Positions 1 to 38,962 of a stretch of DNA of 64,000 bases are shown here, piece by piece. Both the position numbers and the translations under genes were made by a program. Position 1 is the stretch's first letter. Each line of letters starts with the position of its first letter. The notes under the pieces were generated by a model, which saw only the letters and a program-made list of their open reading frames with translations, searched no databases and was not told where the DNA came from. Source of the stretch: Psammoneis japonica (taxonomy: Eukaryota). The stretch spans positions 434,001 through 498,000 of the forward strand of contig QPGO01000022.1 of NCBI GenBank assembly GCA_008632985.1, written 5' to 3'.

Positions 1-481
1 CTTGTCTGTCTGGAGGTGATTGAGACTCACCCAGAGCCCAGCGGAGCCAATCGGAGCCAACAACAAGTGTCAAGATGAACCGCAGCAACATGTGAAGGAG
101 GACGCAGCTGATGGAATGCGGGCAGAGAAGGTGCCGGCATGCAAAGTGGCAGCATGGCTGTCGACAAGGCACCAGTTTTTAAGGTCTAATGGTGACAAAC
201 ATGGTGAGCATTTGCCAAAAGCACGTTGCTGCCTGCCTCCATTTTGGCAACATGCAAAAACAGCATGTTGCACATCACATGCAGAACCCAAACGGCGAGA
301 GTGGCCTCTCATGGAATTGCACACAATGACCCAGTCCTGGAAAATGGAGCAGTGTCCAAGTCACATGCACCATTTGAAACCTTGCCAAGTCACCTGCAAA
401 CAAATGCCAATTCGCTGACCTCTCCAACTTGAAACTAAAAAACTGTGAAAGCATGCCTGCCATCTGGTTGTCATCAGGTTT

Positions 482-1670
482 CTAATTTGCAGAGAGCTGC
501 ACAATGTGTCTGCACATTCTAAAGATTGGACTGCACTTGAGAGCCAACCAAGAGGCACCATTCATGTCCATTGATGTGTCGTCCATCAGCAGGCCGTGGT
601 TGCATGGGTTTCCTGGTCCGCCGTCATCCGTCATCCATTGTGTTCCTTCCAAAGCAAAAACAACAACAGTGTCAACAGCAACTGCAGCAGCAAGGGTGGG
701 ATTGACAGTGTCGGGCATGCCAGGGGGCCGAAACGCAGGTGCGGCGTTAGAATTCGTGACAGCATCTGTGGGAGGCGGTGGGGCGAGAATGAAAGAAGTG
801 TGAGTTACAAGCACTTCGTTGTGGACGTCATTGGCAAAAGACAACAACAGTGTCAACAGCACCTGCGGCAGCAAGGGTGGGAGCAACAGCATCGGGCATG
901 CCAGGGGGCCGAAACGCAGGTGCGGCGTTGGAATTCGTGATGGCATCTGTGGGAGGCGGTGGGGCGAGAATGAAAGAAGTGTGAGTTGTTGGCATTTCAT
1001 TGTGGACGTCATTGGCAAAATGCAATGACAGCATCAACAGCACCTGCGGCAGCAAGGGCAGGAGCAACAGTGTCGGTCATGCTGGGGGGCCGAAACGCAG
1101 GTGCGGCGTTGGAATTCGTGACAGCATCTGTGGGAGGCGGTGGGGCGAGAATGAAAGAAGTGTGAGTTGTTGGCATTTCATTGTGGACGTTGTTGGCAAA
1201 ATGCAGTGACAGTGTCAACAGTGCCTGCGGCAGCAAGGGCAGGAGTGACAGCATCGGGCATGCCAGGGGGCCGAAACGCAGGTGCGGCGTTGGAATTCGT
1301 GACAGCATCTGTGGGAGGCGGTGGGGCGAGAATGAAAGAAGTGTGAGTTGTTGGCATTTCATTGTGGACGTCATTGGCAAAATGCAATGACAGTGTCAAC
1401 AGTGCCTGCGGCAGCAAGGGCAGGAGCAACAGTGTCGGGCATGCCAGGGGGGCGAAACGCAGGCACGGCGTTGGAATTCGTGACAGCATCTGTGGGAGGC
1501 GGTGGAGCGTGCAAACAACAGTGTGAGTTTGCAGCATCTTATTTTGCACGCATCACACCCACGAGAACCGGAATGATGACATCACCTGTTGCATCAGTGT
1601 CATTGGCAACGGTGTCAGCAGGATCGGCGTCCTGGGAAGGCGATGGGGAAGAACCACGAGGCATCATCAT
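482..1670 (-). pseudogene. Degenerate intron-containing gene (probably transposon-borne) with five tandem 28-aa exons
   Basis: ATG at 1670 (MMMPRGSSPSPSQDAD...), donor CAG|GTGATG at 1585, and repeated acceptors with ACTCAC plus a pyrimidine tract ending CCCACAG|ATG. The 84-nt exons encode DAVTNSNAAPAFRPPGMPDAVTPALAAA. The true 3' end is unclear. Confidence 0.6.
640..1530. repeat. Tandem repeat, 181-bp unit x ~5
   Basis: The motif CCGAAACGCAGG recurs at 728, 909, 1090, 1271 and ~1452 (period 181). Confidence 0.95.
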
Positions 1671-1989
1671 GGTCGAGTCGACGAAACGCGTGTTTTTTGT
1701 GCGGAGAAAAAGAGCTCCCGAAAGTGCGCTTCCGACCCCTCGGTTTTTGGTGGTTAGAGTTTTAGGGGAGCTGTGGAACAGGAATTTTTGCTTGTGGAAC
1801 ACACACACACGTGTGGATGTTGACATTAAAACTCAACGCACGGCGAAGCCGTGTGCGCACAACCACGCACACACACACAGCTCCCCTGCCACAGGGGTGT
1901 GCTCCGGCGGTGAAAAAAGACGAAAAGTTTGGCGGTCCATTTTAATTAGAACTCGCAAATGTTTTTAAAAATAACCCGGATTCTTCGTG

Positions 1990-3714
1990 CTTCCTCCAGT
2001 GAGCGACAATTGTCCACGACGAAATGCCGTGTCATTCTTTTTGGGCCGTACATTGTGGCACTGCTTCTGCACATTTTTTGTTCACGCGCCACCTTTCGCG
2101 CCACCGCTAAAACTTTCTAGACTGAGCTGTTGAATCGCTTCTTTTGGCCCGACTGCAGCACAAAATGCCAATTTGATGCACCAGCAGGATGACACAGATG
2201 CTCTGGTGCCGATTCTAAGTGTGTGCCATCAATTCTCTAGAGACAGCACCTTCCAAAACAGCGCTGCTCCAGGTGCGCCTCGGCATCAAACAGCTCCTGA
2301 TTCTGCTCTAGCTCCGCCGTGAGATGCACTTCAGCATCCTCACATGAGTGGTCCATGTTGTTGACCAACATTGAAAGCTTGTTCTCACTCAGAAAATCTG
2401 CCGGGTTGCACCCGTCCCCAATGACATCCAGCGTCGGGTGTCCCACAGATTCTGTTCCACCAGATCAAGGTGCTCAATCACCTCCACTCCGGCGGGATTC
2501 TGCGTCTCTTCTGAGCCGCAAATGTGCTGAAAAAACTTCCAAATTCCACAGTGAAGCAATGACGAACACTTTACGAAATCATCCCTCCCATCACACTGAA
2601 AAACAGCACCCACCACTTGACTGTGGTGCACAAACGACCGCGCGATGGTTCCTTCGGGATTGCACTCATAAATGTGACGAACGGATGCCTGCAGTTGCCC
2701 ACCTGCAAATGTCGACCGCCATTTTCAAGCCCTTGGTCTTCAGTGACCCTCTTGGCCATTGCTGGAAAGAAACGTGCATCCCAAACATTGGTGAGTGGGG
2801 AGTTTGCGGTTGCGGTGCAAGCACTCCCAACTGCGCTGAGCGAATTCACGATCAACAAATGCCAACAGAACCGAATCAATGTGTGGTGTTGCATTGTCCC
2901 ATTGGAACAGAAGGTGCGCTCATTTCCCTGCATCGTTTTCCACCCTCTGAGCAACTGCTTCCATCTTCACCAACAGCATGTTGCGGAAGCAATCCAACAG
3001 TGCAAATTTCGAATTTCGTTCCGTCCCCGAATTCGATCCAGTGACCTCCCAATTCTGAAAGTGCTCCTCGCCTTTACGACACAACAAATCCTCTGCAACC
3101 TTTGGACAATGGAACATTCCACAAGCTCTGTGTGCGTGGTGATGCAAATCCTTCTCAGCCTTCACCTTTCCACCGGCACAAGCACAATCGACCTTGTGCG
3201 GCCACCTCTCTGAAAATCGTTGTTCTGTTGTCAATGTCAATGGCCGTCGAGTTTCATTCAGTGATTGCCGACAAGCACTTGCAGCCAATGATGCAGGAGA
3301 GAGCCATCTCAGGACAATGTCAAGACTGAGTCTGTTGTTGACTGCATGCTGCACATTCGCTCGCCCATTGGCGCCATTGAAACCCGCGACGACGCCGATT
3401 CCACATTCGCTGTCGGGTCGTCCCGCGTGCGGTGTTCCGGCACCACCCGCACCAATTGATTGGATGCTTGGATGTGGTGCAGGAGGGTCCATGGTGCAGG
3501 TGCATTGTCGCACGAAGTTGTGGTTGACGGCACGAGCAACATGTCTCATCGTCGCTGTGGCGGCAGCGGCTCCATGTGTGTTTTGATGATGTCGGGTCGT
3601 GGGTCGTGGATGAACTCCCTCCAAGCCAATTTGCACAGAAGCAGTGCCATGATGCACGGCCCAAAAAAACAACACGGCATTTTGTCGTGGACAATTGTCG
3701 CTCACTGGAGGAAG
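1990..3714 (-). mobile_element. Tc1/mariner-superfamily DNA transposon relic (plant-mariner/DD37-39D-like) with ~85-bp TIRs
   Basis: Inverted repeats at 1990-2073 (CTTCCTCCAGTGAGCGACAATTG...) and 3631-3714. Minus-strand transposase motifs FQWDNATPH (~2881-2907) and PQP-NSPLTNVWDARFFP (~2763-2818), with stops and frameshifts. TG flanks both ends where a TA TSD is expected. Confidence 0.8.
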
Positions 3715-6251
3715 TGCCAACGATGCACGCGTTCGCCAAAAATGTGCTCGCATGGGTCGAACTTTGTCCGTTTGCAAGATGTCATGGAATGCATGCACAA
3801 TGAACACAAAGGTTCGGGATCTCTAGAATGACAACTGCAGATGTGTCCATGGCCAGTCAAATGCCAATTGCTGGCCTTTCCTGGAAAGTCGCTGCTCATC
3901 TGCCACAAACAGCCTGATTTTGGCAAAAAACAGTGGTTTGTCGAATGTGACAACCGCACCCAATGCGACAATTGGCATTTGAAGGTTGATGAGTGTAGCT
4001 CATGTCAAGGTCCAACAGCCCTGATGGGGGCTGGACACACACACAAGTGTTCAGGGGTGCTCAGATGCATCGCAAAACAACACGGGTGAAGTGTGAGCAA
4101 ACCGTCGCATCACGAGCCATTTAAAAAAAAATGCCGCCAAACATCGATCCAGCCTCAACACCAGATGGGTCTCTAGAGGGCCCTGGCTAGAGAGAGTCTG
4201 CTCCCCATCATTTTCCAAGATTTTCCAGTCGTGAAACCTGACAACACCTGAGGCGAGTCCGAACCAATTGTGTGCTCCACCTCCAAACCCCACCCCCTTC
4301 AAGGTTCCAGATTCCTTCTTGGATCACAGCCCACTTGCCAATCACAGCTTCGCAGCACCTGGTGCAAATCCCACTGCGACAGTCAGTTTGTTGCCAGTCA
4401 GTCCCGGGAAGAATGGAAACGCCACCACAAGTTGCAGTCATGATCACGCAGGTCAGGCACTGAAAAGACTCAACGGCAAGTTCAATGCCATGACCTGCAC
4501 AGGCCCTGCATGCTGTGATTGTCGGGTTGTTTGCTGGCTGTGGTCAATGCCAGAACCTGTGTAGATTCTACGTGCTGTGATGAATGGACAATTTTGACCC
4601 CCCCCCCCCTGTCACACGCGGAAGCTTGAGGCGGAACACAGCTTTAATTCTGACTCACCTGACAACACCTGACGACATCATGCATTGCGTGTTTTTGCGC
4701 GATGTCACAGTTGTCCGGTCACAAGGTCAGAAAAATTTTGCAGGTTGAACGATGAGGAGTGCATGTTTTTCAATCACACACATTTGGTGCTTGACAAAAT
4801 GTGACCTGGCAGCCTCGCCTGAAAGGCGCCGCTGCTGCCATGAGACCCAGGCCTCAAGCAACTTGGAGCTGGCATGGCAGGCGCGCTCTGGATGAGTTTG
4901 CATGCCATCACCACGGTGACAACATGGAGAAATTGTCAAAAACCCGCCGGAGCCAATGACGACATTGACGCAGCAGACAAGGTGTCCAAACATTCGTCGT
5001 TTCTTGGGCCATCACAACAGAAGCTCTGTTGGACCCTCATCAACACACCACTGCAATCATCCATTCGGAGATGTGCAGTTCGGCGAGAAATGTTGAAACA
5101 TGCCGTTTTGCTTTGTCGTGACACCATGTTGCATGCAGACGACACATCAACTCACCATTTGCCAGATTTTCGGCACCCGCTGAGTGAAAGTCCAAGTTTG
5201 TTAAAAGGCAAGTGAGTTGAAAATCAAAATGGTGTTGTCAACGCATCTGAGGCTCACCACTTGTTGTCTCACTCAACTTTCTTGCCGCCACAGCCAGCTC
5301 TCACTGTCTTGCCCAGCATGAGCACACATCAACGAATCCAACATCGTCATCACATCGTCAAGCCCATTTGATCAATGGCATTGACCAGACGAACATTTTT
5401 GAAGAATTTGACAGTGCACATGCAATGCATTCAGCCAAGCATTCTTGAATGGGAGAGAGTCGGGCAGATCATGAGAGTGAAAATGAAGAATGAAGTTGGT
5501 GCGCGGTTCAAGAAAAAAGCAGTCAAACATGGTTGACAAAACACTCTGATGCTGTCACTCCACAGAGTGACAAATGACAGTGAACAGAGCTTCTCCCGGG
5601 CTTGCACACACTCTAGATTGATTGCAAAGACACAAGTGTCAAATCTGAAAATGGAAAAGTGCGGCTTGTGAGTGAGCATTCGTGGATTGCTTCACCCACT
5701 CACAGCATGAAAGAGGTCAGACACAGTTGTCACAAGGTCAAAGACAAATTAGAAAGCAGAACATTGCCATAAAATTGGTTTGTGATGATGTTGTCATCTA
5801 ATCTCGGTGTCGAGAAAGGGTCAATCTCACTTCATCGCACAGCGAGTCATGTGTCTTGAATCCCACATGACCCACTCGACTCAAAATTTTGGCAGAACTG
5901 GCTGGACTTTGACCCCAGCTAGAGCCACAAATTGCACAAGACCTGAGCATCATCAGTCTCATGCTCTTTAAACAGGTGCCTTGCGAGAATGTGGCGGGCA
6001 TGCATTGTTTGTGGCATCTGGCATTTCAAAATGGAGCTGGCTTTTCATGGAGCACCTTTGTCACACGGGCAAGTGCAAGAGTCAACATTCAGTGATTGGT
6101 TGGCAACTGACGTTCACCCCCATTCCAGGCCCCCAAAAGTGTGCTGAACTGCACATCTGGATGCTGTCAGTCGATCAAGGTGGGTGTTTGGTTCAAAACG
6201 GGGGGCTAATTTTTTTCACGTGGCATCATGAAGCTGGGACGGAAAGCTGCT

Positions 6252-6803
6252 GACGTGTTCCAGTCCCAGGTGACGCACAAAACGACAATTGATTTTGAAC
6301 ACAAATTGTGCATCTTTTGGTGCATGGAGCATTTTCATGTGAAGTGCTCGTGCGGATTGGCTTTTGTGGGCGGCCAGAGCATGAACATTTAAATGGTTTT
6401 TTGTGGGGCATTCAAGTCCTCATGGGACATGCATCACAAACTTCCTCAGCAGACTCAACACTGATTGTGCATCAGCAGATTTACACTGAGATTTCTTTGC
6501 AGGCAGAAAACCCACCAAGCAGCATCTTAAAAAGACACGTTTGGGTGACATCCAAATGACGGCAACATTTTCACCGAAAATCATCCGTTGTGTTGCGAAT
6601 CTTTTGACACAATGAAAAACACAGACAGCACAACAACAATGACCTTGCAACACTCACACGAGTCTTGTCAGTGTTGCAAAACATTTGTGTTTGCACGAGT
6701 CTGTGCTTTTGGTGGTGAAAGATCGATCGTAAGTTGGGGGCCGCAAAAATCGCACAAATGTTGTTTTGTGCACAATTTGGTTCACGTGCGGCTGGAACAC
6801 GTC
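6252..6803. mobile_element. MITE / non-autonomous DNA transposon, copy A
   Basis: Perfect 12-bp TIRs GACGTGTTCCAG...CTGGAACACGTC and a 4-bp TSD TGCT (6248-6251 / 6804-6807). Homologous along its length to 6973-7528. Confidence 0.9.
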
Positions 6804-6972
6804 TGCTGCATGATGCTGGATGTGCAGCATGTGCAGTGCTGCAGCCTGCAGAGGCACACGAAAAGTTTTGTTTGAATGAAAGCAATGACAATGGACAACA
6901 ACGCAACAGCTGACAACACACAACGCCAAAGCACGGGGAGAGCGGAGAGCGGAGAGCGGAGAGCGACCATGC

Positions 6973-7528
6973 GACATGTTCCAGTCCCAGGCAATGCACA
7001 AAACAACAATCAATTTTGAATGTAAATCATGCATCTTTTGGTGCATGGAGCATTTTCATGTAAAATGCTTGAGCGGATTGGCTTTTGTGGGCATCCAGAG
7101 TGCGAACATTTAAATGATTTTTTTGTGGGGCATTCAAGTCCTCATGGGACATGCATCACAAACTTCCTCAGTGGACTCAACACTGATTGTGCGTCAGCAG
7201 ATTCATGCTGGGATTTCTTTGCAGGTGGAAAACCCACCAAGCAGCATCACAGAAAGATGCACTTGGGCAACATCCAAATGACGGCAATGTTTTCGCCAAA
7301 AATCATCCGTTGTGTTGCGAATCTTTTAACGCAATGAAAAATGCAGATGGCACAGTGACAATGACATTGCAACACTCACACGAGTCTTGTCAGTGTCACA
7401 AAACATTTGTGTTTGCACAAATCTGTGCTTTTGGTGGTGAAAGATCGATCGCAAGTTGGGGACTGTGCAAAAATCGTGCAAATGTCGTTTTTGTGCACGA
7501 TTTGGTTCACGTGCGGCTGGAACATGTC
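6973..7528. mobile_element. MITE / non-autonomous DNA transposon, copy B
   Basis: TIRs GACATGTTCCAG...CTGGAACATGTC and a 4-bp TSD ATGC (6969-6972 / 7529-7532). Confidence 0.9.
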
Positions 7529-8061
7529 ATGCCAACAAAAGACAACCCAAGATCCAAAGAGCAGCAGGAGCTCAAAAGGAATGCCAAGAACACAAAAGGA
7601 AAGAGAAGGAGGAGAAAGCGATGCGCAAACAGGAGCAAAACCGGTTGCACAAACAGAAGAGTCGAGAGCGGCAGAACGAAGAGCAGATCGAGTGGGAGAA
7701 AGTCGCTCGAATCGAATGTCGAGAATGTGAAAGGCTGGAGAAGGTGGAGAAGCAGGAACGCCAATGAAAGCAAAACCGGGAGCGCAAACAGAAGAGCCGA
7801 GAACGGCAGTGCAACGCATCAGTCGTGGCCGACGGCAATGATGCCAAGACCACCAACGGCAACACGCAGCGCAACTTGAACACGGGTGTTGGTCGAGCAC
7901 CCAGACACAGTCCTGGCGATGAAGAAGCAAGTGCTCGAAGATGGAAGAAAGTGTCATTCCCCACACACGAACGCTCACATCATTGTCAGGAAGAGCGAGC
8001 AAACGTGAAACCAGGACAATTGTACGTGCGTGGATTCCTGACACTCCGTCTTGCCATCTGA
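7529..8061 (+). pseudogene. Relic charged/coiled-coil ORF whose ATG lies in the MITE B target site
   Basis: ATGCCAACAAAA (MPTKDNPRSKEQQELK...) followed by K/E/R/Q-rich frames broken by a frameshift and a TGA. Confidence 0.35.
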
Positions 8062-8182
8062 CTCAACAATCTTTCACCGACAGCGCTTCGTGCTTTTCTT
8101 CAATGAGGAGTCGTCTTGCTTGCTTGAGCGAGGTAGGAGTTGGTCGAAAAAGGCTTCTCTCTTCGTTCCACCATCCTCCATC

Positions 8183-15831: not shown

Positions 15832-18800
15832 ATTTTCAGCCTGTCAGGGTTCTCTCCAAGTTCAGAGGGTTATCCACGCTAGATGAATGTAAGCACAGCT
15901 GTACATGTCGAAGGCTTGGAGGAGACTTATAGATGCTACCTGTGCTTTGGCGTTCCTCAAGATAGTACGGCAAGATTATTGACGGCAATCATTTCTTTAT
16001 AGAACTAGTAACCGCGACTCCGACAGACACAACAACGTCATGTTTTTGGTCCAAAACTACCTTTTTGTTTCTGCCTAGATCCGAGGTAAACGATTCGTTG
16101 TCCTCTGCCTTGCTTCTGCCATGCCCCGAGCAGGAAAACAGATCCCATTTTCCTTTGTGATATGTTGAATGCAAGATACGTCTTCTCTCGACAATTGAAA
16201 ATACTGGGAACTGTTCCTGGTTTCTGCGCTCGCAAAATGACATAGAGACCGCTTGTTGCAAAAATACACAAGAGTCTCTTTTTGTCGTTTCGTCCTTGAA
16301 CAACAGGTTTTGCTCCTTGTTTCAATGTTCGCTGCAGCTAGACTGTGATAATACTTGCGCAGAATAGATGCTTGTTTGGAGTCTATTTCTCGATGTCCAT
16401 GAATGATGACCTGGAGAATGAAGATCGCTTCGGGCCCACCTGTTCAACACTTCCCAGTGACAGGAATTGCTCGTGAGAAACAGTCAGTGGTCATTGTCAA
16501 CAAGTCTTTCAACAACTGCAGCATCATGTCCAAGTCTCACCAGTGGCCTCACAGTTCTCCTCAAACATTGAGGAGCCAGTGCTGTGGGTGTGCAAGTGAC
16601 AGTGCTTGAGGATGGAAACAACTGGCATCACACCAGCAACAACAACGTTGATCCTGTGTGTGTTCACTTTGCACCCACATCATCCCAAGAATCATTGCAA
16701 AATGTTTGATCACTGTGCAACACAAAACAAGAACAATGGAGAGAATGTAAGAAATTGGTGGACAAAGGCCAGTGCACCAGAGCCAAGGATTGAATCATGG
16801 CATTGTCCAAAACAAAATTCTGTCAAATGTCATTGCCCCATGCTCCACACAACAAGACAGCCCCTTCTGTTGATGAGATGGCTCTTGCACCTCAAAACAA
16901 ATGATGTTGTCTTGGCATGAGAGCACAGCAATGGTTGAGACAAAAGCCCATCACACAACAGACCAAAGAGCAAGCAATGAATGAGAATGTTGTTGTGGGC
17001 ACTCCTCTGGCTGGGAATGGAGGGAGATGTGGCAGGAGCAGTGCAGCATGAACACTTCATTGCAAGCACTGGTTGACTGTCACATCATGATTGACAACAA
17101 ACTTGAAAGAACTGGTGCATGGTGGCTCACAAGTGCTGCAGGAACAACAGCTCAATTTGCTTTTGCTTGACAGCTTTGTCATTGGCACCTGCATCCAGTG
17201 CTGTCAGAGCCTTGGTGGGACATGTTGTTGGCCAACAGGCTCCTGATCCAACAAAGCACAACAAGATCCTGCGTTGATTTTGAAGATTTGTGTCACAATT
17301 TTCAAGGTTGTTGTGCCCTCAAGCAGCTGCTGGATTGAAGAAATGCTCAACAGCAAGATTGTCAAATTAACAACCACAAAGTGGACTGCATCACAAAGCA
17401 CCTCAGTTGTGTTGCATCACCCATGCAAGGACATCATCAGCACCCCTTTGATCTCAACAAGACTGACCCAATGAAAAAAGCTGCACTCAGAAGCAAGGGC
17501 ATCAAAGGTTCTTGGCAAGTGAAGAAACAGGTCTCAACCTTTTTTGCACCTCTCTCTAACTTTCAAAAGCACATGTCCTTGCCCATGCTTCTGCAAACTG
17601 TCCACAGATGGGCTGCTCTGTGGTGGCTTTGCCTGCAGGGACCCCTTTGCAATGAGGCAGCATTTTGCAGCTGTGTGGTGGCTCCAATGTTTGATGTTGA
17701 TGACATGGTGGCCAAGTGCAGAGACACATGTTGTTGGCTTGCTGGCTCCTGCCAGAAAAAACAAACATGGGTGGCAACCAGCCAGTGCTGAAAACTTCTG
17801 TGCACTTGGCAGGGCTCTCAGCTGGCTGTGCTTCAACAAACTGCTTGTTGCAGCTGGCTTGCCTTCTGTCAAACCCCTCAATGTGGTGGTGCACCCCCAG
17901 CAACCCAGTGCACATGGTTGTGCTGCAGCAAAGATTGTTTGAGCTGCCTTTTCAAAAGTTGCTGGGGACCTTCAGTGGTGAAGCAAGCAACCATTGCTGC
18001 CCCTGCAAACAAGTCAACATTGCTGGCTGGAGTCAAGAGTGGCCCAGGCACAGAAAAAGGAAAATGCAAAAATGCAAAGCTGTCTCTGTCCACTGACAAA
18101 CAGTTTGCTTGCTTCTCCACAGCCATCATCTCATCAATTCTTGGGGTGGCAAAGAAAGCAGTGGCAGCCCTCTGTCCCAGCTTGCTCCAATGGACAGAGA
18201 GAAGACATGAGGCTGCAGAGAACAGAGATTGTCAGACCAAATTGGAGCAAATCAACTCCATGACATCCTGCCTCATTGCAAAACACAACAGCCAAACCAG
18301 AACAAAGTTGGCATGCAATGAACACTCTCTCAGCTTTGTTTGTGGCAACAAAAACACAGAAAAGCTTGTTGAGTGACAGACCAGCCACCATTCTCAACTT
18401 TGAAAAAGGCTGTGGCATTGTTGAGCTTGTTGCAACTTGCAACAACATGAGGTGTCAGCAAAAATGATTGATGAGACTGTGGGAATTTTTGTGAGTGAGA
18501 TGCTGGCTCCAGCTCCAAGTGCTGGCACACATGTGTGCCTTGATGCCCCCTCCCCCCCACACACACACACTTCAGTGCAAAGTTCTTCTTCAATTTTTGA
18601 ATCTTTTTTTCAAAATCACAAGGTGAGTGTGCACAAGTGCATGCTCCACCAGCCCAGCATTTCTGCTGTGCAGGTGATTTGGAACACCCAGCCAAGTTTC
18701 TGTTCTTTTTGCAGATTGGTGATGTGCTTTGGCCACTTGGTTTGGCTTTTTGCCATTTGCAATCAGGTGTGAGATCACCACTTGTTGACTTTGCTCTTGG

Positions 18801-19559
18801 CTCTGTGCTGATGTGCCCCCAACCCAGCATCTCACTTTGCCCCTTTCTTGTTTGAAGCAGTTGGTGCATGTGCACAACAGTGGTCCACAGCTGACAGCCA
18901 TGCATCCCCAAGGGAAGCTCTCTGGCTCTCCAAAATGAGCAAGGGTTGGCAGTCAAAGAAATGGATTTGACTTGGCAGATGAAAGTGCACAAGAACCTCC
19001 CTTGTTGCTGCAGAAAGGAAGCACTGCAAAAGCAAGAGATGACAAACAATGGACTTTGTTGTTTTGTGTCATGAGGCACTGGGAGAGTCCAGCCCAGATC
19101 ATGAGCAGCAGCACACAAGCATCCAACCAGGAGAAAGAAGATCATGAAGGACAGCAAGATTCAGCCAGCAGCACAGAGAGTTTAATAAAGAAAGCTCATG
19201 CTCTGATGGTGGCATGAATGCCAAGGGTTGCAAAAGAGTCATTTTGTGGTGGAGCAACAAGGGGCATTGCAAATTGGTTGTGGTGAAGTGCAGATTGCAG
19301 ATGGCAATGCCATGTGAGCCACCCACAAGCAAGTTGGTAAATGCCAAGCCAAAGAGCCTTGCATGTGTGCCACATGGCAGCATCATTGTGGTGCAAGATG
19401 AAAAAAAAACAGATCCAATTTATGGTGCTGCCACTTCTTCACCAGCCAGGCCAGTGCTGGCTGACTCACACTCCCAGCACATTAAAAAAAATGCAGTGCC
19501 AGAAGGTGACACCCAATTGAAGTTGCTGAGAACGGCTGGAGTGCTGCAAAGCCTGAAGA

Positions 19560-20700
19560 GCTTCACTTCCTTTGTGCTTGCATTCAGGCATGGTTTAACT
19601 GCAGAGACCCATTTTTTGTTCTTGTTGTGTGAGTGAGCAAGGTGCTCCCCACATTCTCCATCAAAATGTCACAGTCCTTGGCAAGGCATTCTTGTCTTTT
19701 GTTGTAAATGGCAGTGAGTTCAGCCTCTCCCACCCAATGCTGCAAGGACTTGTGAGATTTGATGTCAAGGCCATGCACTTTCTTGTTGTGCTCTTCCCAC
19801 AAGCCTCACCAGGAATTCCCAATGCATGTGCCTGTCTGCACTGGCCAGGTGGGTGGCTGGTCATTCTGTTCTTGACATTGATGCAGAAGACCCAACTCAC
19901 ACAGACACATCTCCTGAAAGGCACTCCACAGTCATGAGAACCTGCTGTTGAACATTTGCCTCCATCCCATGTCACTCTGTTGTGCCACAAAGAATGCAGC
20001 ATCAGATCTGCGTCTGAATCACAGAAAAATTGGCCATGGAACTGAGCCTCCAGAGACAAGAGAAGAAAATCACACAATGGAGGCATGGTGCCTGACACAT
20101 TGCAATGTCAGTGCAGTCCTTGAAGAAAAGTGCAATGCCAAGGTTTGTTGTCTGGGCAACGGAGAATGTGATCCCTGTCTTCTGCCCATGGGGTGGTCAC
20201 AAGAGAGGCAGGAGTGAGGACAGACTGGGTTGTGCCAATGGACAATCTTGTTTGCAGGCAGCAGCTCACAAACCAGTTTCGCTGTTGAGATGTGTTTCTT
20301 GGAATGCCGGCGGATCAATGTTTTGTGGACAGGCCAATCCATTGTCTGTCCATGACTGACAATGACCAGCCATTGCCACTCTCTGATGTGCTCCAACAGT
20401 GGAAGAGCTGCAGCTGCACATCGTGTGGCAGCCTCATGTCCAGCAGTGATGGCACTGTCCTCTGGACAGAGGCAAGCCTGACAATGAGGGAATGGGATGA
20501 CCTGAGAAGTGTCGTGATCACACAGACCTTGACAACACCCTGCCAACATGTCAGCTTGGACATTGATCTTTGCATTTCTGTCAACCACCCACTTTGTCAA
20601 ACAAGGGTGGCTGTTGGTGCTGCCACTTTGAATGACTTTGCAGTCAGGCACAGAGCAGTTTTTGGCAACTGCAATTGGATGTGCCACTGTCTCCCAGCTC
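19560..20700 (-). mobile_element. 3' part of a non-LTR retrotransposon ORF (RNase H end + zinc-binding region), degenerate
   Basis: NVQADMLA (RNase H N..AD.LA), MDW...KLVCELLP...CPHSCLSC and WEEHNKKVHG resemble LINE C-termini. Confidence 0.5.
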
Positions 20701-20867
20701 TGTGGCTTCCTCCTGGGCTTGAGAAACTTTGTCCTTCTTGCTTGGCCTTGTGACACATTGGTGCAAATCATGCAAATTTCATGTTTGTTGCTGTGTGGGG
20801 TGGGTGTGCTTGTTCACCAACAAGTTGCAACCCATTCCAATGAAAAACAATGGAGGCTTCAAAGATG

Positions 20868-21348
20868 CTGTGTGCACAGGGCATTTGTCTCAACAGCCTC
20901 AGTTTTGACAAGAAACAAGTGTCCCACCAGCACATGTCAATGGAAAGCACCACAACACAACTTGTCATTGAACTGCCCTCACACAGCAACTTCTCATTGT
21001 TTCTTCTGACCACAAAAACAGCACTGCTGCCATGACCCAAAAGAGCACAGTGGTGTCCTGAGTTTGGCTGGGTTCAAAAGGGTTGCTTTGATGAAACCCA
21101 GGGATGTTGAGGACACTGTGTGCACAGGGCATTTGTCTCAACAACCTCACTTTTGACAAGAAACAAGTGTCCTCCAAGCACATGTCAATGAAAAGCACCA
21201 CAACAAAGCTTGTTGTTGCACCCTCACACACCAGCTTCTCATTGCTTCTTCTGCCCACAAAAACAGCACTGCTGCTGTGACCCAAAAGGGCAGAGTGGTG
21301 TCTTGTGCTTGGCTGGGTTTAAAAGGGTTGCTTTGATCAAACCCAGGG
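20868..21348. repeat. Tandem duplication, ~248-bp unit x 2
   Basis: CTGTGTGCACAGGGCATTTGTCTCAAC...AAACCCAGGG occurs at ~20868-21103 and ~21116-21348. Confidence 0.9.
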
Positions 21349-24300
21349 CCATTTGTGCACTTGTCATGCACAGAAATTTGTGCCAAAACCATGCTTGCAC
21401 TGTTGGGGCACACAACTTGTTTTGTGCAAAAAAAAAATTGAGCACAGCAGCAAGGGCACACTTTCCATGCATTCTGTGCCAAATGACTGTGACTCTGGCA
21501 AGAAGGCAGTCCTGGCTGTCATGTCAAAACAACTGCCATGCTGCACACTTTTCCTTTTTTGAGTGAAACCACCATGTTGTGCACTTTTCTCTTTTTGAGT
21601 TCCTTGTTTCTCCTTGGCAACTTTGGTGGGGCCACATCTTGTCTTTCTTGCACAAAACAAATCCCAGTGGCTTTATGGAGAGGAGCACAACTTGTGCTTG
21701 GGTCCTCTTGTGCTCCTTTGTGAAGGACATCAACATCTGCTTCTCTTTGGTTGGATTTTTTGTTGCGCACTTTTTGCTTCTTGAATGATGCCTTGTTTCT
21801 CCTTAGTGTCTGTCAAGTGGACATTGTCAGCCAGCCCCAATGTGCAGTCATTTTCAGTGTCACCCTGGTGGATGCTTGCCATGCCACCAGCAAGGCTTCC
21901 CACATGCCATCACACCATGGTGCACCCCACAAAGGCACCAAAATGTGTGTTCTGGACCTGTCCAAACTCACCACATGCTCCCCATGCACCAGGCAACTGC
22001 TTGCATGCTGTGAAGCTCCATGGTCATGTGCTTCAACCAGGAGACACATCAGCACAGAACTGTGCAGGGGAGTTGCACACTGGAGCCCACTGCCTGGACA
22101 CACAGCACACCAAAGTTGTCCCACCCCTGGGTTCTCACCTTGGCCTGCTGCCACACACAGTGGCATGCTGCAACATGATGATCTCCCCATGGGCTGTGGT
22201 TTGATCCCTCAAAACAGTTCCCCATTGTTCTGCATCTGAGTGCAATGTTGCCAATTGCTCCCAGAACACTCTCTGCTTGGCAGGGCCATGTCTTGCCTTT
22301 GCAATGATCCTTTTGAGGAACACCAAGTGATGCCTGGCAGTTTGTGGTTGGATTGCTTGTGTGCCTCTGCCCTGTCCTTGAGAATGAAATTAAGCTGTTG
22401 TGCCAGCAACTGTGGCAGAGTTGTTGGGGCTGATCTGACAACCTTTGAAGACAGGCAAGCAATTTGTGTTGCCAGATTTTTGTTGTTCTTGTTGTTTTGC
22501 ATGGCCAGCTGCAGCAGTGGTTTGCTTCCAACACAAAACTTGTTCCGTGCAACTTTTTTGTTGGACCAGCTCTGGCTGCTCATGATGTTGGCTGCCACAG
22601 CAGAGAAAAGTCCAACATCCAACATGTTTTTTGTCAACAGAGCTCCCCACCAATTGTCTCAAGTTGGACAAAGACAAGGTCAATGTTTTGCCTCCCAAGC
22701 CAAGCCCCCCTCCCACAAAGCAGCACACCAGGCAGTGCAGCACAAAGTCGGCCGGAAAGTCATGTGTGCCAGGAGCAATGTGAGCAACAATGTTTTTGCC
22801 AGAATTGTCAGAATTCATGAAAGCAGCAAAGCTGGACACTGCACTGGTGTTCTCTTCTTCAATGAGCAAGAGAACAGACAAAGATGGCCTGACAAGCAAG
22901 AGTCTGTCACCCACCCCACAAACACCAGCACCCAGCACAAAGAAAGGGCAGGACATTCTCTGCCACTGCAACAGCAAGCTGTGTGATGGCCAATGTTTTC
23001 AGCAGGGTGTGCTGTGTGCTTTGCTTGGCAACAATGATGTCATTTCAATCCAATGTCAAAGCTCATGATGGGCCAGCTGTGCACATGAGATTGCTTGCCA
23101 AGAGCCTCAAAGGCACAAGCTGCCAAGCTGTGGCAGGGTGCATGAGCTGCCTTCAGTGGCAGCAAATGCTGGAGCCAACCCCAATGTTGCCACCTGTGGC
23201 TGTGCAATGCTGCACTCACATCTGAAACAGTCTGAACCAAAAGCACAAAAGAGCTGTTGCAGGGCATGCAAATGTTTGCATGATGTGCAATGGCAAGGGC
23301 TGGCCATTGAGCAAGATCTGTTGAGAAAGGTTGAGCATCATGTGGACATCAGCTGGGCAGGCTTTTGGCAAGACTGCCTGTTCAATGAGATCTCCCTGTC
23401 TTCTGTGCACCCTCAGCCCCAAGCACTGCTGCAAAGCACAGCACATTGTGTCACTGTGTCCTCTGCTTTGTGAGAAATTGTTGACATCACAAGCTGTGTG
23501 GAGGAGCTGAAGCAAAGAAGTTTTCTGTTGATTGCTGCAATTTTCAGAAGAAGGTTGTGTTGGGCGTTTGAGGAGAACAACTCACTGTGCCAGCCACAGA
23601 AGCACCTGTCTGCACATCTGCACCACATGCTGCATTTGTGCCAAGCCAACGGAATTGACAAGCTCGTCAAAGTGCATGACAAGTCAGCATCATGGCCTTC
23701 CTCATCCAGCTGCCAGGGAGTGAAAGGAAATCATGAATCTCCTGGCTGAGAGGCAGATCTGCCAGCAGCTCTCTCATGCACCTGAAAGCAAGTCAGGCCA
23801 TTGCAAAAGTGGAGATTGTGGGGCTCCTGTTGATCACCTTGCTCCCCCCCTCCCTCTCACTTTTGCCACAAGCACACTTTGCTCTACCATTTGTTTGGCT
23901 GGGTGCTCTTTTGACGACTCTTGCAAATGCAGCAACAAGCCAGATGCATGGCTCAAGCCCTGATGGTTGCATTTGATTGACTCAGCTGGCTTGTGAGCGC
24001 ACAACATCATTTGTGCAAAGAAAAAAACAAAAGTTGCAGCTGAGCTGTGACATTCATTGTGAGCAATTTCCTGCTGAAATTTCAACAAAAACTCCTCACC
24101 AACCATGCTGAGAGTGATGCTGTGATGCTTGTTGTCATGTCTCATTCCGCATTGGAGGCACTTGTTGTGAAGGGAAACCAGCGTTGGCCAGGTGCTCTTT
24201 CATCTGCAATCACACAGGAAAACAATGACAGGGCTGAGAGAGAGAGAGAGAGAGCCAACATTCTCTGATGTGATGGCCCAGCTGAGTGTCAGTGCTTGCC

Positions 24301-25377
24301 AAAAAGAAGTGTGAAGTTCTTGGACGACAAGGGGTGCTGTTTGCTTTCAATGCTTGTCAGGTGTGTGGTCCACCCCCACCCAAATGTCACATTTTTCTCA
24401 TGACACAAGAATCAAAAATGATCCAGAGTCCTTGAGTCAGGGCTGGCCAACAAAAAAGAAAAAGCTTGCTGAAAGCTTGCGCACTTCAACATTTGTTTTT
24501 GAAGCAAAGCAAATGCCTCCCCCCTCCAAGGCAGGGCTGCTGGAGATTGGTGTGCCAACCTTGTCCAGCATTGCTTCACATCTGTTGTGGAAACAATTTG
24601 CACACCTGACACAGCAGCACTGAGCACATTGCAGCTGACTGCATCTCTCACATTTGTGCATGAGTGCACTGACACCAGCACCCAGCAGCTGCAGCAGAGA
24701 TGTTGGGGTCACGTGAGATGGATGACAAGGGGCATGTGGCAAGAATCCTGGCATCCATTGCTGCACAGCATGCAGGGGTGTGTTGTTGACAAGGTGGGCA
24801 AGTGTGGAAATTTTGCTGCAAGTGACATGTGCAGGCTCCTTGTGAGAAGATTGCTGCACCAGCAGCAAGAAAGAGGGAAGAGAAAGGAGGTCTGAGTTTC
24901 ATTTCAGCAGCAGCAGCAGAGCCAAGAAGCTGTGGAATGGCATGCAAGAAAAATGGCTGGTGAGGTGGTTGATGTGGAGCCACCAATGGCGTGGGGGACA
25001 GAGCTGCGTTGATCAGTGGAGCAAGACATGCAGTTGTCGCATTGAGAGCTGTCGTCACAGTCAAAAGAGTAAGGGAGCAAGGCCCAGGAAATGAGCACAA
25101 AGATGGGAAGTCTCGCATGCGGGCCACTGCACGAAGTGCTGTAGACGGTACCACGACACCGTGTGAATATTTCTCGTATGTAGGAGGTATACTACGAGCA
25201 CGTATCAATCGATTTTGGATGCAGTTGGAAGTCGAAAAAAATAGAGTTGAATGACAATAATCCACAATGGGTGTGGGTGCAAACCCCGTTCTCGCGTTAC
25301 ACCGCTGGACTTGTAGCCCCCTTGCATTGAAAAGTAGAGTTGTCACGTCCTCCCTGTCTCTTCCATATTAGGACGCC

Positions 25378-31700: not shown

Positions 31701-31926
31701 TCCATTTAGTTGGCTAGATGAGTTCACACATCGTAGCAAGTGGCTTGGAGGTTTCTATGATCCTGTTTCGGGTAAACCCTTGCGTTCAGAGGACCGGCTT
31801 GAAGAGCTGATGGAAGAGCGCGGTTTCAAGAAGATCCATGATTCCGAAATGCCTCTGGTGATTCGGGAGCACCAGCGCAAATATCAATACATTGTTAGTA
31901 AGGCTACGGGATGGCGAAAAGAATAA
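28716..31926 (+). CDS. ovoA: 5-histidylcysteine sulfoxide synthase OvoA (DinB + FGE-sulfatase + SAM methyltransferase), 5 introns
   Basis: FYYGHT..YINKL, GVDEMLWDD, the iron motif HERIHLE, FGWDNEYG, GNAWEW, FRPHFLQHSGFR, LDIGCAVG and IREHQRKYQY. Introns at ~29089-29182, 29331-29418, 29822-29906, 30263-30350 and 30459-30537. Confidence 0.93.
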
Positions 31927-33911
31927 TCTGAATGCAGGTCGTCCCTTTGAGAGCCAGTTGCTGGGATAACTGTTGTGAGGGGGGAGAGATGCTGTAGACT
32001 ACTGTAGAGTAAAGAGACTTGAAAAAGTGCTAAAGGATTCGAATTCTTGCTGTGTGCTTTTTCCTAAATGCAAAACATTGAAGCAGCACGGAAGCAAAAC
32101 TAGAGCGAAGCTAAAGTCCATCAATGAATGTTTTAGGGTGAAACATTTTCAATTTTGGTCAAGAAGCGAACATGCGCAGGCCATTGGGGTAACATGATCA
32201 TCTATCTACGACTAAGTCTTCGTTGAATTCCAACACGGCGTCGGGCAGGCAGAGCGGATGGATAGAATGGCTGGCTAGAGCCAAGGCATGGATGGATGGC
32301 ACTGGATGGATGGAATGGACAGCCATGGATGGAACTCATGCCGAGCAAAAAGCACATGGAGCCATGCCCATTCACGATGTGTCTTTTTCGGATGTCATGG
32401 ATGCACACAACAGATGGCTCCCACCTCAAACAGCCACATTGCCCATGAAGTGTCGTAAGTTGAAGAAGATGTGTTGGATGTTGATTCCCAGGTGGACATT
32501 GCAAGCGCCACTCCAGTGAGCATCAAGACAACTGCTTTGCCTTCTGCCTCACATGTGACCTCTTTTGTTGGAGTTCTCACATGTTTGCAGATTCCAAGTG
32601 GGGCCCAGTTCACACATCTCCTGCCAGCTGTGCTGCTGACAACGTGTCTCAAGCTGCAGATGCATCAGCCATTGGTTCCCAGATGGACACCTCGAACAAT
32701 GTTTGGATGAGTGTCAAATGTCTGCTGTGTCTCACCTGAGCCATCTGCAGCAATTTTTCATTTTGGCTTGCTGCTGTTCTCCACCAGCTTGATGGCATGC
32801 TTTCATCAAATGACAAGGCAAGCCTGCTCCAGACCTGCAGTGCTTTTGTTGTTCTGGCTGTGCAATGGCTGTCACATGCATCAGATGGGCAGATTGTCAG
32901 CTTGGAGGCTGTGCTGCCTGCTTGCTGCCTCTGTGATGCCATGGTGTGACAGCTGTGGCGTGGGTGCAGTCAATGCTTTGGTGGTGGCCAAATCAACTCA
33001 TGCTTGGATTTTTGGCTCTGACAGCTGTCAATGATTTTGGATGCACAAAGCCAGCACCATTGCTTCTCTCATCTGAGCAAGCATGACCAGTGGAAGCTGG
33101 GCAACTGTGAAAGGGGGCGACCAAATGTTGTTGCACCTTCCACCACTCTGTGACCGCTTGACCTCTTTCCTCCACAGTCAATGCCGTTGTCATGCTGCAC
33201 AGTGCTTTTCATGGGGTGCTCCTGACTTGTCAATTGTTGCTGGCCACAATTTCACAGTTCCCACCAGCCAGGGGAGAGAGCAAGAACGTGGCAAAGAGGA
33301 AGCATTCAAGCTCAGCAAGCATGGAAGAAACTGTCATGATGATGCCTCATTTGGGAGCCCATGTTTCAAACAGCAGCTGCAGCCTGATTCTCACTTGCCA
33401 TGCACCCAATTTCTTCTGACATTGAGTTGCTCAATCACAAAATGTTTTTGTCCTGCATGTTTTTCAGGTTTGAAGAATGGTGTGGGGCATGTGTTGCTCA
33501 ACAAGATTTGTTGGAAACTGCTGATGATGCTTTTTGTCGAAGTTGAAGTTTTTGGTTTGTGCTGTGCAGCTGGGCCTGGCCATTTGTTGCATCATCTGGC
33601 TTGCCAGCTTGCCACCTTTCTGTTGAAAGGTTGTTTTTGTGGTGCACTGTTGCAGCTCTGCGATCTTCACTTGTTGGACAGACATTGCAGATCAGGAGAG
33701 AGCAGTGTCAGCATGCGCTGGACCTGGGTGCATGTGCAGATCTCTCTGAGATCTCTCACTTTCTTTCATCTGGCATCATGCTCACTGATGCTGCTGTCCC
33801 AGCATCTTGTTGGGTCACTGCCCATGCATTGTTGTGTGAGAGATCTGCTTGGCTGTCTTGTTCTGGCTGTTGTGCAGTGATCCACAGAGTTGGTGTGCTG
33901 ACAGCGATGGC

Positions 33912-33913
<2 letters not shown>

Positions 33914-33982
<69 letters not shown>
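33914..33982. repeat. (GA)n microsatellite (shorter tracts at ~24236, ~35237 and ~35543)
   Basis: Perfect GA dinucleotide run. Confidence 0.98.
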
Positions 33983-33984
<2 letters not shown>

Positions 33985-34099
33985 GCTGTTGCCATCTCAA
34001 GCCAGTCAACAAGTGCATCACAAGATTGCACTTCTGCCTGAAAAAAAGCAAAAAGTGGAAGAGAAGTGGAAGTTGGGGGCAGTGTTGGCAGAAGGGAGC

Positions 34100-35542
34100 A
34101 GACGACAAATTACAAAAAGTCGCACGCAAGCAACCATCTTACTTTAAAAGCTCGTTGTACCTCAAGAATGAGCTGGTCCAAATGGCAGCACCACCAAACT
34201 GCCTGCTTTTCACCTCTGATGCCAAGTCCTGCTGCTCGAACATCCCAACAAACAAAGCCCTTTGAGCAATTGCGGCCTGTCTATGATGACACAAGAATGA
34301 ATTCCAAGACGCACCAGCAGAAGCCCTCATTGAAGCCCTCTGCATCACAATGAAACACAGTGTCTTTGCTTTCGGTGACACCACATGGCTCCAACGCAGT
34401 GGCACCGCAATGGGCACACCACCTGCCCTGCCACATGCCACGCTCTTTTGTGCTCTACACGAAGCCACTCTCCTGGAGGAGTTTGGCACAAACCTGGTTT
34501 TCTGCAAATGATTTATGAGTGACGTCTTTGGCATCTGGCAAATTGCCAAATCAACCTCCGACGCCACTCGCTGGAATGCACTCACCTCCAGAATGAATGA
34601 CTGCAACATCAATTGGGTCACGAGTCCAAGGGCCCACCAAGCAAACTTCATGGACCTCACCATCACACTCCAAGGCTCCAACCCACACACCACTCTTTAT
34701 GAAAAAGAAATGAATTTACACCTGCACATCCCTCCACATTCAGCTCACCCACCTGGAGTGCTCACCGGCCCAATTGTGGGCATGCTCTTTTGCTTCAAGA
34801 ATCTCTGCTCAGACCCTGCTGACACAAAAGCAAAGATGAAACTTCTTTGCCATTGACTGCTTGCTTGAGGCCACAAGCCCAGCAAGCTCCAACCCATCTT
34901 CCAAAAGGCATGCAACCACCTCTTTGGCAATGAAACAACTGTGAACAAGCCCCCAACCAATCCTCCCATCTTCCCACATGTCCCATGCCATCTGAACAAC
35001 CCACCATCCAGCAAACTGCAAAAGACATGGAAAGGAACGATGGCCTCTCCACCACACTCCCAGCCACTTGCCAACATTCAAAATCACAACCAACAAAACA
35101 CATTGGCCCAGACCACATGATCATTTGCTGCAATTGGTCAGGCAACCTTGGCAACCTTCTTTTGTGCCACATCCTTCACACCTCCAATGGCCCCCCAGTT
35201 TCGTCCCACCGGATTACAAGCAGGGAGGCCACTGTGAGAGAGAGAGAGAGAGAGAGAGAGAGTGCAATGACATGAATTCAAACTGAATCAATCGACTCAA
35301 ATCACCTTTCCCTTGCCCCCGAATCTTTTTAACATGACAACCTCAACCACGTAAACAACAACAGTCAGCCGCTGATGAAGCCACCACACGAAAGTCTCAC
35401 TCCTGACTTCGGCCAACGTTGTTGTGCCTGCCATTCACTGAAACAGTTGGGTGAAGATCTGAGCTGGTGGCTCCACCTCAGCTGCTCTCATTCTTTGTTT
35501 GTCATGTTTGACAGAGAATTGGCTGCACCAATTCCTTTGTTT
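34100..35542 (+). mobile_element. 5'-truncated Penelope-like retroelement (RT + thumb; no GIY-YIG seen)
   Basis: Motifs LFTSDAKSCCSNIPT, FAFGDTTWLQRSGTAMGTPPA, K*FMSDVFGIW, FMDLTI, TTLYEKEMNLHLHIPPHSAHPPG and NLGNLL. In-frame TGA stops. Confidence 0.85.
35356..35424 (+). ncRNA. Type I hammerhead ribozyme (Penelope-associated)
   Basis: CTGATGA core at 35372-35378 and GAAA at 35390-35393. Stem III is AGTC/GACT. Stem I is CAACAAC-A-GTcaGCCG / CGGCcaAC-GTTGTTG. Stem II is minimal. Confidence 0.7.
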
Positions 35543-38653: not shown

Positions 38654-38962
38654 TTGTTCTTTATTGTGATGGGGTGATGGATGTGATTTGATGTTGTATG
38701 TATGATTGACGATGGATGATGGATGTCGATGATGGTGTGATGCATGATGCATTGTGATGCCCGACCGCCGACAGGAATTTTGTCGGTGTCGCTGTGTTGG
38801 TGGGAGGTTTGGGTTTGTCCGCCCGGGCGAAGGAATTTTTTGAAATTTTCCAAAATTCCAAAATGGCGCAAAAACCAACAAAAAATGAGCAACAGCGAAC
38901 CCCAAAGAAGTAACAATCACCCGAAAGGGCAACAGCAACACCTTATTCTAATGTGAATAATC

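Follow-up and report, generated by a model that had tools for sequence, protein, structure and literature searches.

Two copies of a non-coding element in a TA-depleted domain

We analysed a stretch of 64,000 nucleotides from Psammoneis japonica (assembly GCA_008632985.1, contig QPGO01000022.1, positions 434,001 to 498,000 of the forward strand; hereafter the window), which carries two copies, A and B, of a short transposon-like element. A preliminary description of this pair had proposed that the differences between the copies record TA to TG and TA to CA changes, made independently in each copy and on both strands. Our results go beyond this description: the window contains kilobase-sized domains almost without TA, and often without CG, in a diatom-like genome, and both copies lie in one of them.

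Copy A (6252..6803, plus strand) is a non-coding element of 552 bp with terminal inverted repeats (TIRs) at 6252-6263 and 6792-6803 (GACGTGTTCCAG), with ACGTG at either end, and is flanked by a 4-bp target duplication, TGCT, at 6248-6251 and 6804-6807. Copy B (6973..7528, plus strand, in the same orientation as copy A) has 556 bp, TIRs at 6973-6984 and 7517-7528 (GACATGTTCCAG at both ends), with ACATG at either end, and its own duplication, ATGC, at 6969-6972 and 7529-7532. In each copy the termini are complementary at 12/12 bases, and a repeat search extended the arms to 28 nt at 82%. The alignment of 6252-6803 with 6973-7528 gave an identity of 87.4%. Note that the length of the target duplication is known from n=2 copies. 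No Pfam family was found in the two open reading frames (ORFs) that overlap copy B (7187-7879 and 7376-8062).

Other members of the family were followed in the Logan contigs of one public sequencing run, 1,641 of which matched at a likeness of at least 80%. This run is possibly the source of the window assembly, so it does not provide independent support for the window sequence; moreover, contig depth is not a copy number, and a low depth supports only the reading 'low copy'. Summed contig depth in the bins of the element ranged from 1,179 to 40,852. The contigs of other copies depart exactly at 6251/6252 (8 contigs) and at 7528/7529 (10 contigs), and the departing ends at 6251 and 7528 agree poorly among themselves (0.43-0.48). 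Since each copy has its own TIRs and its own 4-bp duplication, and since contigs leave at the exact ends, A and B were inserted separately and belong to a many-copy TIR element without coding capacity. The label of miniature inverted-repeat transposable element (MITE) that they had been given is acceptable: the size of 552-556 bp, the perfect 12-bp TIRs, the target duplications, the lack of coding capacity and the many dispersed copies are all as in MITEs. They differ from MITEs in that the duplications TGCT and ATGC fit no superfamily that could be tested, and no autonomous partner was seen in the window.

Some further features were noted at the pair. The TIRs match within each copy (ACGTG in A, ACATG in B), which would be either a 50% coincidence of two CpG decays or the mark of different sub-families. 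The 150 bp to the left of copy A (6100-6250) attract numerous contigs, with a summed depth of 1,400-4,600 and family-majority differences, which indicates that another repeat abuts copy A. To the right of copy B, in a flank free of TA and rich in CG, a segment of 105 bp is repeated (7570-7674 and 7705-7809, 72% identity); it translates into a sequence rich in K/R/E/N, and the ORFs overlapping it are the two without a Pfam family mentioned above. A degenerate 24-mer from the best-conserved block of the element was also searched in metagenomes; the two loci recovered were rejected as chance matches, with no blastn likeness and ordinary dinucleotide content.

The copies differ mainly at pyrimidine-purine steps

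All ten sequence strings on which the preliminary description relied were recovered where it had placed them (10/10). The two copies differ at 70 alignment columns, comprising 62 transitions, 4 transversions and 4 gaps. Over the 552 ungapped columns, 54/62 transitions fell at pyrimidine-purine (YR) steps, which account for 290 sites, while the other 8 were spread over the remaining 262 sites. The transition rate was thus 6.1-fold higher at YR sites than at non-YR sites (Fisher p=1.7e-9). The 145 YR steps were paired between the copies as follows: CA/CA 50, TG/TG 46, CA/TG 16, CA/CG 10, CG/CG 10, CG/TG 6, CA/TA 4, TA/TG 2, TA/TA 1 and CG/TA 0. Steps at which one copy has CA and the other TG (hereafter doubles) were therefore more common than the 5.0 expected if both positions changed independently (16 observed; Fisher p=8e-8). 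These counts bear out the claim that the copies differ mostly at sites of the TA or CG type. Likewise, retained TA alternates between them as had been described, being found in copy A at 6482 and 6730 and in copy B at 7023, 7061 and 7327.

A direct inversion of 2 bp was considered as a source of the doubles and rejected. Between A and B there was one GT/AC pair only, at a CG/CA site, and neither AG/CT (0) nor GA/TC (0) pairs; in addition, it is opposed by a tandem array in the same domain, described below, where long CA and TG stretches never flip.

TA loss is confined to four domains

The pair is not special in this respect: the same pattern fills the 8-kb domain around the copies and three further domains. 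Between them, the four domains cover 35% of the 64-kb window and hold 80 TA where about 909 were expected. D1 (1..8000) is cut by the left end of the window; it has 48 TA against about 323 expected, with CG largely kept (349 against about 459); it contains both element copies, the tandem array and a TIR element of about 1.7 kb. D2 (16480..25000) has 15 TA against about 344 and 25 CG against about 488, with a CA/TG observed/expected ratio (O/E) of 1.92 and a GC content of 0.487. D3 (32460..36540) has 12 TA against about 165 and 53 CG against about 234. Finally, D4 (62100..64000), which runs off the right end, has 5 TA against about 77 and 12 CG against about 109. TA-free runs of 1,625 bp (in D2) and 1,654 bp occur (P ~1e-29).

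The limits of the domains are sharp and could be placed to about 100-200 bp. The TA O/E of the whole window, 0.41, is consequently an average of two distinct kinds of DNA. Outside the domains, in gene-bearing DNA, TA O/E is 0.60 and CG O/E is 0.99; inside them, TA O/E is 0.03-0.10 and CA/TG O/E is 1.65-1.92. Several intergenic spacer bins outside the domains reach a TA O/E of 0.8-1.0. The eight ORFs with Pfam support have a value of 0.63 at codon positions 3-1 and, depending on codon phase, of 0.46-0.63. Thus, TA loss is regional and not a genome-wide bias. CG O/E falls to 0.05 in D2, 0.21 in D3 and 0.14 in D4. When the window was divided into 500-bp bins, 47/128 were TA-poor (O/E <0.3) and 26 of these 47 were CG-poor as well (O/E <0.3), whereas 0/81 TA-normal bins were CG-poor, so that CG loss is nested inside TA loss.

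We then considered DNA in D1 that belongs to neither copy. The spacer between the copies (6804..6972) has a low contig depth, of the order of a single contig (summed depth 126-245 in the bins over 6856-6963), and 0 TA against 6.8 expected, and one 190-bp contig matches this region with 0 differences. The DNA from the right end of copy B to the edge of the domain (7529..8022) has 0 TA against 19.9 expected (P=2e-9) and 31 CG; its depth was measured to 7700. Summed contig depth was 120-246 in bins over 6856-6963 and 7558-7700, where single contigs had depths of 53-90. The absence of TA from this low-depth spacer and flank indicates that TA loss does not depend on copy number.

Transposon-like structures and tandem repeats occur in the purged domains, which may stem from old transposons, viral inserts or other silent DNA. 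The two edges of D2, like those of D3, are linked by no inverted or direct repeat of at least 12 bp, and no pair of long terminal repeats or TIRs of at least 40 nt was found in D2. The larger ORFs (6 in D1, 10 in D2, 4 in D3 and 2 in D4) matched no Pfam family at E<=0.01, and the 126 ORFs of at least 70 aa in D2-D4 had 0 matches at E<=0.001, apart from low-complexity matches on 2 ORFs over a (GA)n tract. The longest ORFs of D1 to D4 have 300, 276, 267 and 302 aa; sequences simulated with a first-order Markov model (200 per domain) gave 95th percentiles of 303, 308, 274 and 262 aa and maxima of 364-485 aa. The 302-aa ORF of D4 lies above its 95th percentile (262) and below its simulated maximum (364). 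As the longest ORFs fall within the simulated range, ORF length is no evidence of genes. Two direct repeats of 144 bp were observed in D3 (33958-34100 and 35543-35686; 96.5% identical, 1,585 bp apart), each opening with (GA)n, which could be the ends of an element.

TA and CG have been converted to CA and TG on both strands

YR steps take up the same share of purged (0.246) and normal DNA (0.240), and the GC content of purged DNA is unchanged, at 0.48-0.50. That both the YR total and GC are kept argues for conversion and not for a different kind of sequence. In support of this, when each TA and each CG in the normal DNA was replaced in silico by CA or TG, chosen at random, CA/TG O/E came to 1.93, with 1.92 observed in D2. 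A microsatellite origin of the CA/TG richness was rejected, AC/GT having an O/E of 0.93 in D2. D2-D4 also have an AT O/E of 0.73-0.79 and a GC O/E of 1.23-1.38, and GA/TC is at 0.81-0.86 in D2 and D4.

CA makes up 0.48-0.53 of CA+TG on the plus strand. No strand-coordinated clusters of CA or TG were detected, the lag-1 autocorrelation being 0.02-0.06 in purged DNA and 0.03-0.09 in normal DNA. Equal shares without extra runs indicate that the two strands were hit independently.

The TA steps that survive are not a random sample. TTAA accounts for 22/80 of them, compared with 53/1,641 in normal DNA, while ATAT (0 vs 98), ATAC/GTAT (0 vs 259) and GTAC (2 vs 139) are almost or wholly missing among the survivors. 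RTAY may be the preferred target, or YTAR may be re-created faster by C to T changes.

At polarised sites the main direction of change is TA and CG to TG and CA

The direction of change was read from the other family copies in a table of the best 40 of 293 variable places, where the family letter had 66-100% of the summed contig depth; the copies themselves contain 34 of the 40. This gave the polarity of at least 15 sites. TA has become TG or CA in the window copy at at least 6 of them (6319, 6341, 6375, 6703, 7204 and 7259), and CG has become TG or CA at at least 9 (6290, 6460, 6573, 6609, 7249, 7298, 7464, 7466 and 7477). At 6341 the family has A in 77% of the summed contig depth, so that TA is ancestral and copy A, with TG, is derived; at 7204, which corresponds to 6482 in copy A, the family has T in 90%, so that TA is again ancestral and copy B, with CA, derived. 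At 6319, 6375 and 6703 neither copy keeps the TA of the family, each having TG or CA instead.

Among the matches listed, TA in a copy faced CA or TG in the family at 0 of the 34 places inside the copies. The opposite polarity, with TA as the derived state as in repeat-induced point mutation (RIP), had been named as what would overturn the proposal, and no such place was found; wherever the direction could be polarised it was from TA to TG or CA (at least 6 sites, none reversed among the matches listed). Both strands have been hit, since CA as well as TG products are present, and mutation after insertion also fits, given the separate, intact target duplications and a family majority that keeps the TA and CG lost here. 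The rest of the 34, among the matches listed, comprised one CG of copy B that is TG in the family (7103), one complex site (6696-7), 5 other transitions, 5 transversions and at least 3 flips, in which a CA or TG of the family stands in its opposite form in the copy (7342-3, 7397-8 and, weakly, 6735-6).

Other parts of the proposal stood less well. TA is a source of the differences at the 6 or more sites named, and CG decay is at least as frequent. Within the five examples on which the proposal had been built, 6341 and 6482/7204 are cases of TA decay and 6609 (CAC vs CGC) is a CpG change. The TA ancestors proposed for the doubles, such as GAATATAAA, could be compared with a family majority at only 5/16 doubles among the matches listed. 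Two of these five have a majority of CA or TG from which copy B has flipped (7342-3 and 7397-8), two have CG or CA (6290 and 7477) and one has TA or CA (7259). The step at 6605-6606 reads TTGA in copy A, TTAA in copy B and TCAG in a three-contig subfamily (a loose-end consensus before 7346); all three states thus seem to occur at a TG/TA step, which is suggestive, though only that, of TA decay. In summary, the original inference has the right direction and is incomplete, CpG decay being at least an equal partner in A and B.

Other repeats carry the same signature

A tandem array in D1 (654..1550, plus strand) consists of 4.7 copies of a 181-bp unit. Its YR columns, compared over five units, include 10 that mix CA and TG, 9 with invariant CG, 2 with CA and CG and 2 with TA and TG, while long CA and TG stretches are constant across units. 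Because the 10 mixed columns stand beside 9 in which CG never varies, CpG is not the unstable state in the array. The variable columns behave like former TA sites that were resolved separately in each unit.

The element of about 1.7 kb in D1 (1990..3714) is bounded by inverted repeats of 55-80 nt that are 91% complementary; its arms differ by 6 transitions, 0 transversions and 1 gap, with two CA/TG doubles among the differences. In D2, a 245-bp tandem duplication (20868..21348, plus strand, 88% identity) shows 16 transitions and 9 transversions, and three CA/TG doubles are found among its differences.

Gene content of the normal DNA

Outside the purged domains, the window encodes a fused TrpA-TrpB tryptophan synthase (56562-58544, minus strand; Pfam), which is 79-86% identical to its best 120 hits; all the named ones are diatoms and none exceeds 86%. 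It is on this one marker that the genome is called diatom-like. A dimethylglycine-dehydrogenase-like gene (53623-56077, plus strand) has DAO, FAO_M and GCV_T domains split over two overlapping plus-strand ORFs in different frames (53623-54981 and 54977-56077), and the frame split at about 54977-54981 indicates a short intron or a frameshift. The remaining assignments, all by Pfam, were an FGE-sulfatase and methyltransferase ORF (30538-31926, plus strand), a DUF3727 protein (37892-38947, minus strand) and an ORF of 845 aa that weakly matches EF-hand (59298-61835, plus strand). The single N of the window (53467) lies between two copies of a 227-bp repeat with 100% identity (53240-53466 and 53749-53975), which looks like an assembly gap artefact in or just before the dimethylglycine-dehydrogenase-like gene.

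A regional transition pressure as the favoured explanation

We think it probable that A and B are MITE-like insertions in a domain under a regional, context-specific transition pressure that turns TpA, together with CpG, into CA or TG. Under this pressure TpA would become CpA or TpG, on either strand and with equal chance, and CpG in methylated repeats would also become TpG or CpA. As TA and CG are palindromic, they would resolve at random to CA or TG, so that two copies losing the same site would differ by a CA/TG double half the time. By our arithmetic on the table of paired steps, decay alone would account for about 3 doubles derived from CG and about 4.5 derived from TA that decays slowly; TA sites that decay fast, leaving no single difference behind, would, we infer, supply further ones. 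Flips suggest newly arisen TA or CG, which would be resolved anew.

The two components may have different origins. By analogy, the TpA component would be the same kind of targeted hypermutation as that of the alga Bigelowiella natans, while the CpG component would correspond to the ordinary deamination of 5-methylcytosine in methylated repeats, as expected in diatoms. CG loss may be a second, independent process.

Several results weigh against this explanation. Changes in the copies are not exclusively from AT to GC, unlike those of B. natans (at least 9 CG sites and at least 6 TA sites). Two to three of the doubles are flips from a CA or TG majority, which a simple decay-only model does not predict, and 11/16 doubles have no family majority of at least 66%. 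The polarity itself comes from two copies in the window and the best 40 of 293 variable places, weighted by the depth of a run that is possibly the assembly source, and at 3/15 polarised sites (6290, 7259 and 7477) the partner letter was taken as unchanged. The conversion model predicts an O/E of 0.91 for AT, 1.06 for GC and 1.08 for GA, and D2-D4 show 0.75, 1.33 and 0.86; this misfit may stem from an additional effect of context or from another starting composition. No foreign (viral) or transposable-element protein domain was found in the purged domains (126 ORFs in D2-D4 and 6 tested in D1). Finally, for this organism the evidence comes from the sequence.

Could the pattern arise without any editing system? 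Silent chromatin that escapes mismatch or base-excision repair would accumulate raw replication errors, seen as transitions at YR steps. The sharp regional limits, the borders without a sequence feature, the predominance of transitions, the effect on single-copy DNA and the equal and independent hits on both strands would all suit such an escape. Nonetheless, we consider it unlikely, since the loss is directional, removes two dinucleotides almost totally and is accompanied by few other transitions (the 8 at 262 non-YR sites). Nor is a repair-deficient spectrum that affects TpA and CpG alone known to us. Moreover, the sole TpA process that has been measured is about 1000-fold, confined to TpA and active in some lines only, and it is read by its authors as regulated (bioRxiv 10.64898/2026.01.13.699255).

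CpG methylation and deamination alone, with all doubles descending from CG and TA playing no part, is an improbable account of the window, although there is evidence in its favour: 16 steps between A and B oppose CG to TG or CA, at least 9 sites have CG as the family majority, CG is nearly gone from D2-D4, and methylation of transposable elements is known in diatoms. It fails where CG persists. Both copies keep 10 CG/CG steps, and a homogeneous decay fitted to these numbers (10 CG/CG, 16 CG with another state) gives about 3/16 doubles; D1 retains 349 CG but 48 TA; the array sets its 9 invariant CG columns next to 10 with CA and TG; and at least 6 sites have a family majority of TA.

We give very little credence to selection in place of mutation, by which TA and CG would be avoided for functional reasons (stop codons, nuclease or insertion sites, unstable RNA motifs). 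In its favour, TA is mildly low even in genes, as the codon-phase values show and as is typical of most genomes. Against it, no coding capacity was detected (0/126 ORFs in D2-D4, bar the 2 low-complexity ones), the longest ORFs of D1-D3 are below the random 95th percentile, the YR total is conserved, and copies of one transposon lose TA independently after insertion.

It is just as hard to believe in a sequencing or assembly artefact in which modified bases of silent chromatin are misread as TG or CA. The contig run may also be the assembly source, and the sequencing technology of both is not on record; even so, contigs that Logan built independently from this run show 0-1 differences from the D1 sequence over stretches of 156-206 bp (word depths 53-88), a result not expected of noisy long reads. 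Near-identical repeat units with identical flanks show CA in one and TG in another, which a systematic miscall would not produce, and TA stands at the same positions in the assembled contigs of other family copies.

A RIP-like process in which CpA becomes TpA can be dismissed, even though repeats are involved and RID-related DNMT4 occurs in 31/60 surveyed diatom species (PMC9998398), because composition refutes it: TA is depleted 10- to 30-fold and CA/TG enriched, the opposite of RIP, copy-specific TA was found in 0/34 places within the copies among the matches listed, and the low-copy spacer is affected.

Returning to the regional pressure on TpA and CpG, its wider meaning can be put forward only tentatively. 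It is possible that diatoms, and perhaps the wider stramenopile-alveolate-rhizarian group, have a DNA-editing defence directed to chromatin domains, which erases TpA, with CpG or followed by CpG, from invading and silent DNA. Such a defence would leave 'cryptic isochores' that are invisible to GC scans and take up to a third of a genomic region. The near-complete loss of RTAY, with TTAA as the most resistant context, would suggest an enzyme that reads sequence on both strands, and possibly one deaminase family serves for A and C.

TpA-directed hypermutation has so far been measured in one organism only, B. natans, in a 2026 preprint. If the trace described here in a diatom-like genome is of the same kind, the process would extend beyond viral inserts and would be more than the peculiarity of a single alga. 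The trace is also far more complete here, extending over about a third of the 64-kb window and across transposons, tandem repeats and unique spacer. Its combination of TA O/E <0.1, CA/TG near 1.9 and unchanged GC could serve as a genome-wide marker for scans of algal genomes. It would account for the CA/TG doubles between repeat copies, which would mislead dating and alignment-based repeat annotation, and it would allow a RIP-like defence to be tested outside the fungi, among organisms that carry RID-related DNMT4 genes.

Comparison with known systems

The closest known system is that of B. natans, in whose mutation-accumulation lines two integrated viral regions mutate about 1000-fold faster than the rest of the genome; 230/231 mutations in these regions are A to G or T to C, all of these on TpA, and the genome contains 124 clusters of 1-kb windows that are poor in TpA and rich in CpA and TpG (bioRxiv 10.64898/2026.01.13.699255). 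Its authors propose that an enzyme like ADAT2 deaminates adenine in DNA and so defends the genome against foreign DNA, and the accessible part of the preprint text has 0 mentions of diatoms or CpG (bioRxiv 10.64898/2026.01.13.699255). In our literature search, judged from titles and the openings of abstracts, no report of TA-purged domains or TpA hypermutation in diatoms was found, and this preprint was the only relevant match. Both systems turn TpA into TpG or CpA on both strands, in regions confined beside ordinary DNA; in both, clusters of TpA-poor, CpA- and TpG-rich windows are the long-term trace, and many of the affected sequences are unannotated. The differences are also clear. The host there is a chlorarachniophyte and here diatom-like; TA O/E is 0.03-0.10 here, near saturation, compared with a Rho of 0.45 in the nucleocytoplasmic large DNA virus (NCLDV) region of B. 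natans; and the targets here are a many-copy TIR element, tandem arrays and single-copy spacer, with no viral gene found. Moreover, CG is also lost here in three of four domains, and the de novo rate was measured in the B. natans lines, whereas the process in this window is deduced from traces in the DNA.

Fungal RIP is a functional analogue with the opposite chemistry. Like RIP, the process here would ruin repeated or foreign DNA through a regional hypermutation by transitions only, leaving sharp blocks of odd composition beside normal genes. However, RIP converts CpA to TpA and so makes TpA and AT-rich DNA, while here TpA is removed, CA/TG rises and GC is unchanged; and RIP acts on duplicated sequence only, whereas here the low-copy spacer and flank have 0 TA.

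Two systems of CpG decay complete the comparison. In mammals, apparent double substitutions between CA and TG arise via a hypermutable CpG intermediate. In the diatom Phaeodactylum tricornutum, transposable elements are methylated via DNMT5a, and the RID-related DNMT4 genes, of unknown function, are found in 8 pennate and 23 centric species among those surveyed (PMC9998398). The decay of CpG in methylated elements resembles our case in its changes from CG to TG or CA in repeats, with CG O/E at 0.05-0.21 in D2-D4 and at least 9 polarised sites in A and B, but it cannot explain TA loss, the tandem array or D1, where CG is kept and TA is gone. The mammalian intermediate shares with the window a palindromic dinucleotide that resolves into two reverse-complement products, hence the adjacent double differences; what sets the window apart is that, in D1 at least, the hypermutable state would be TpA.

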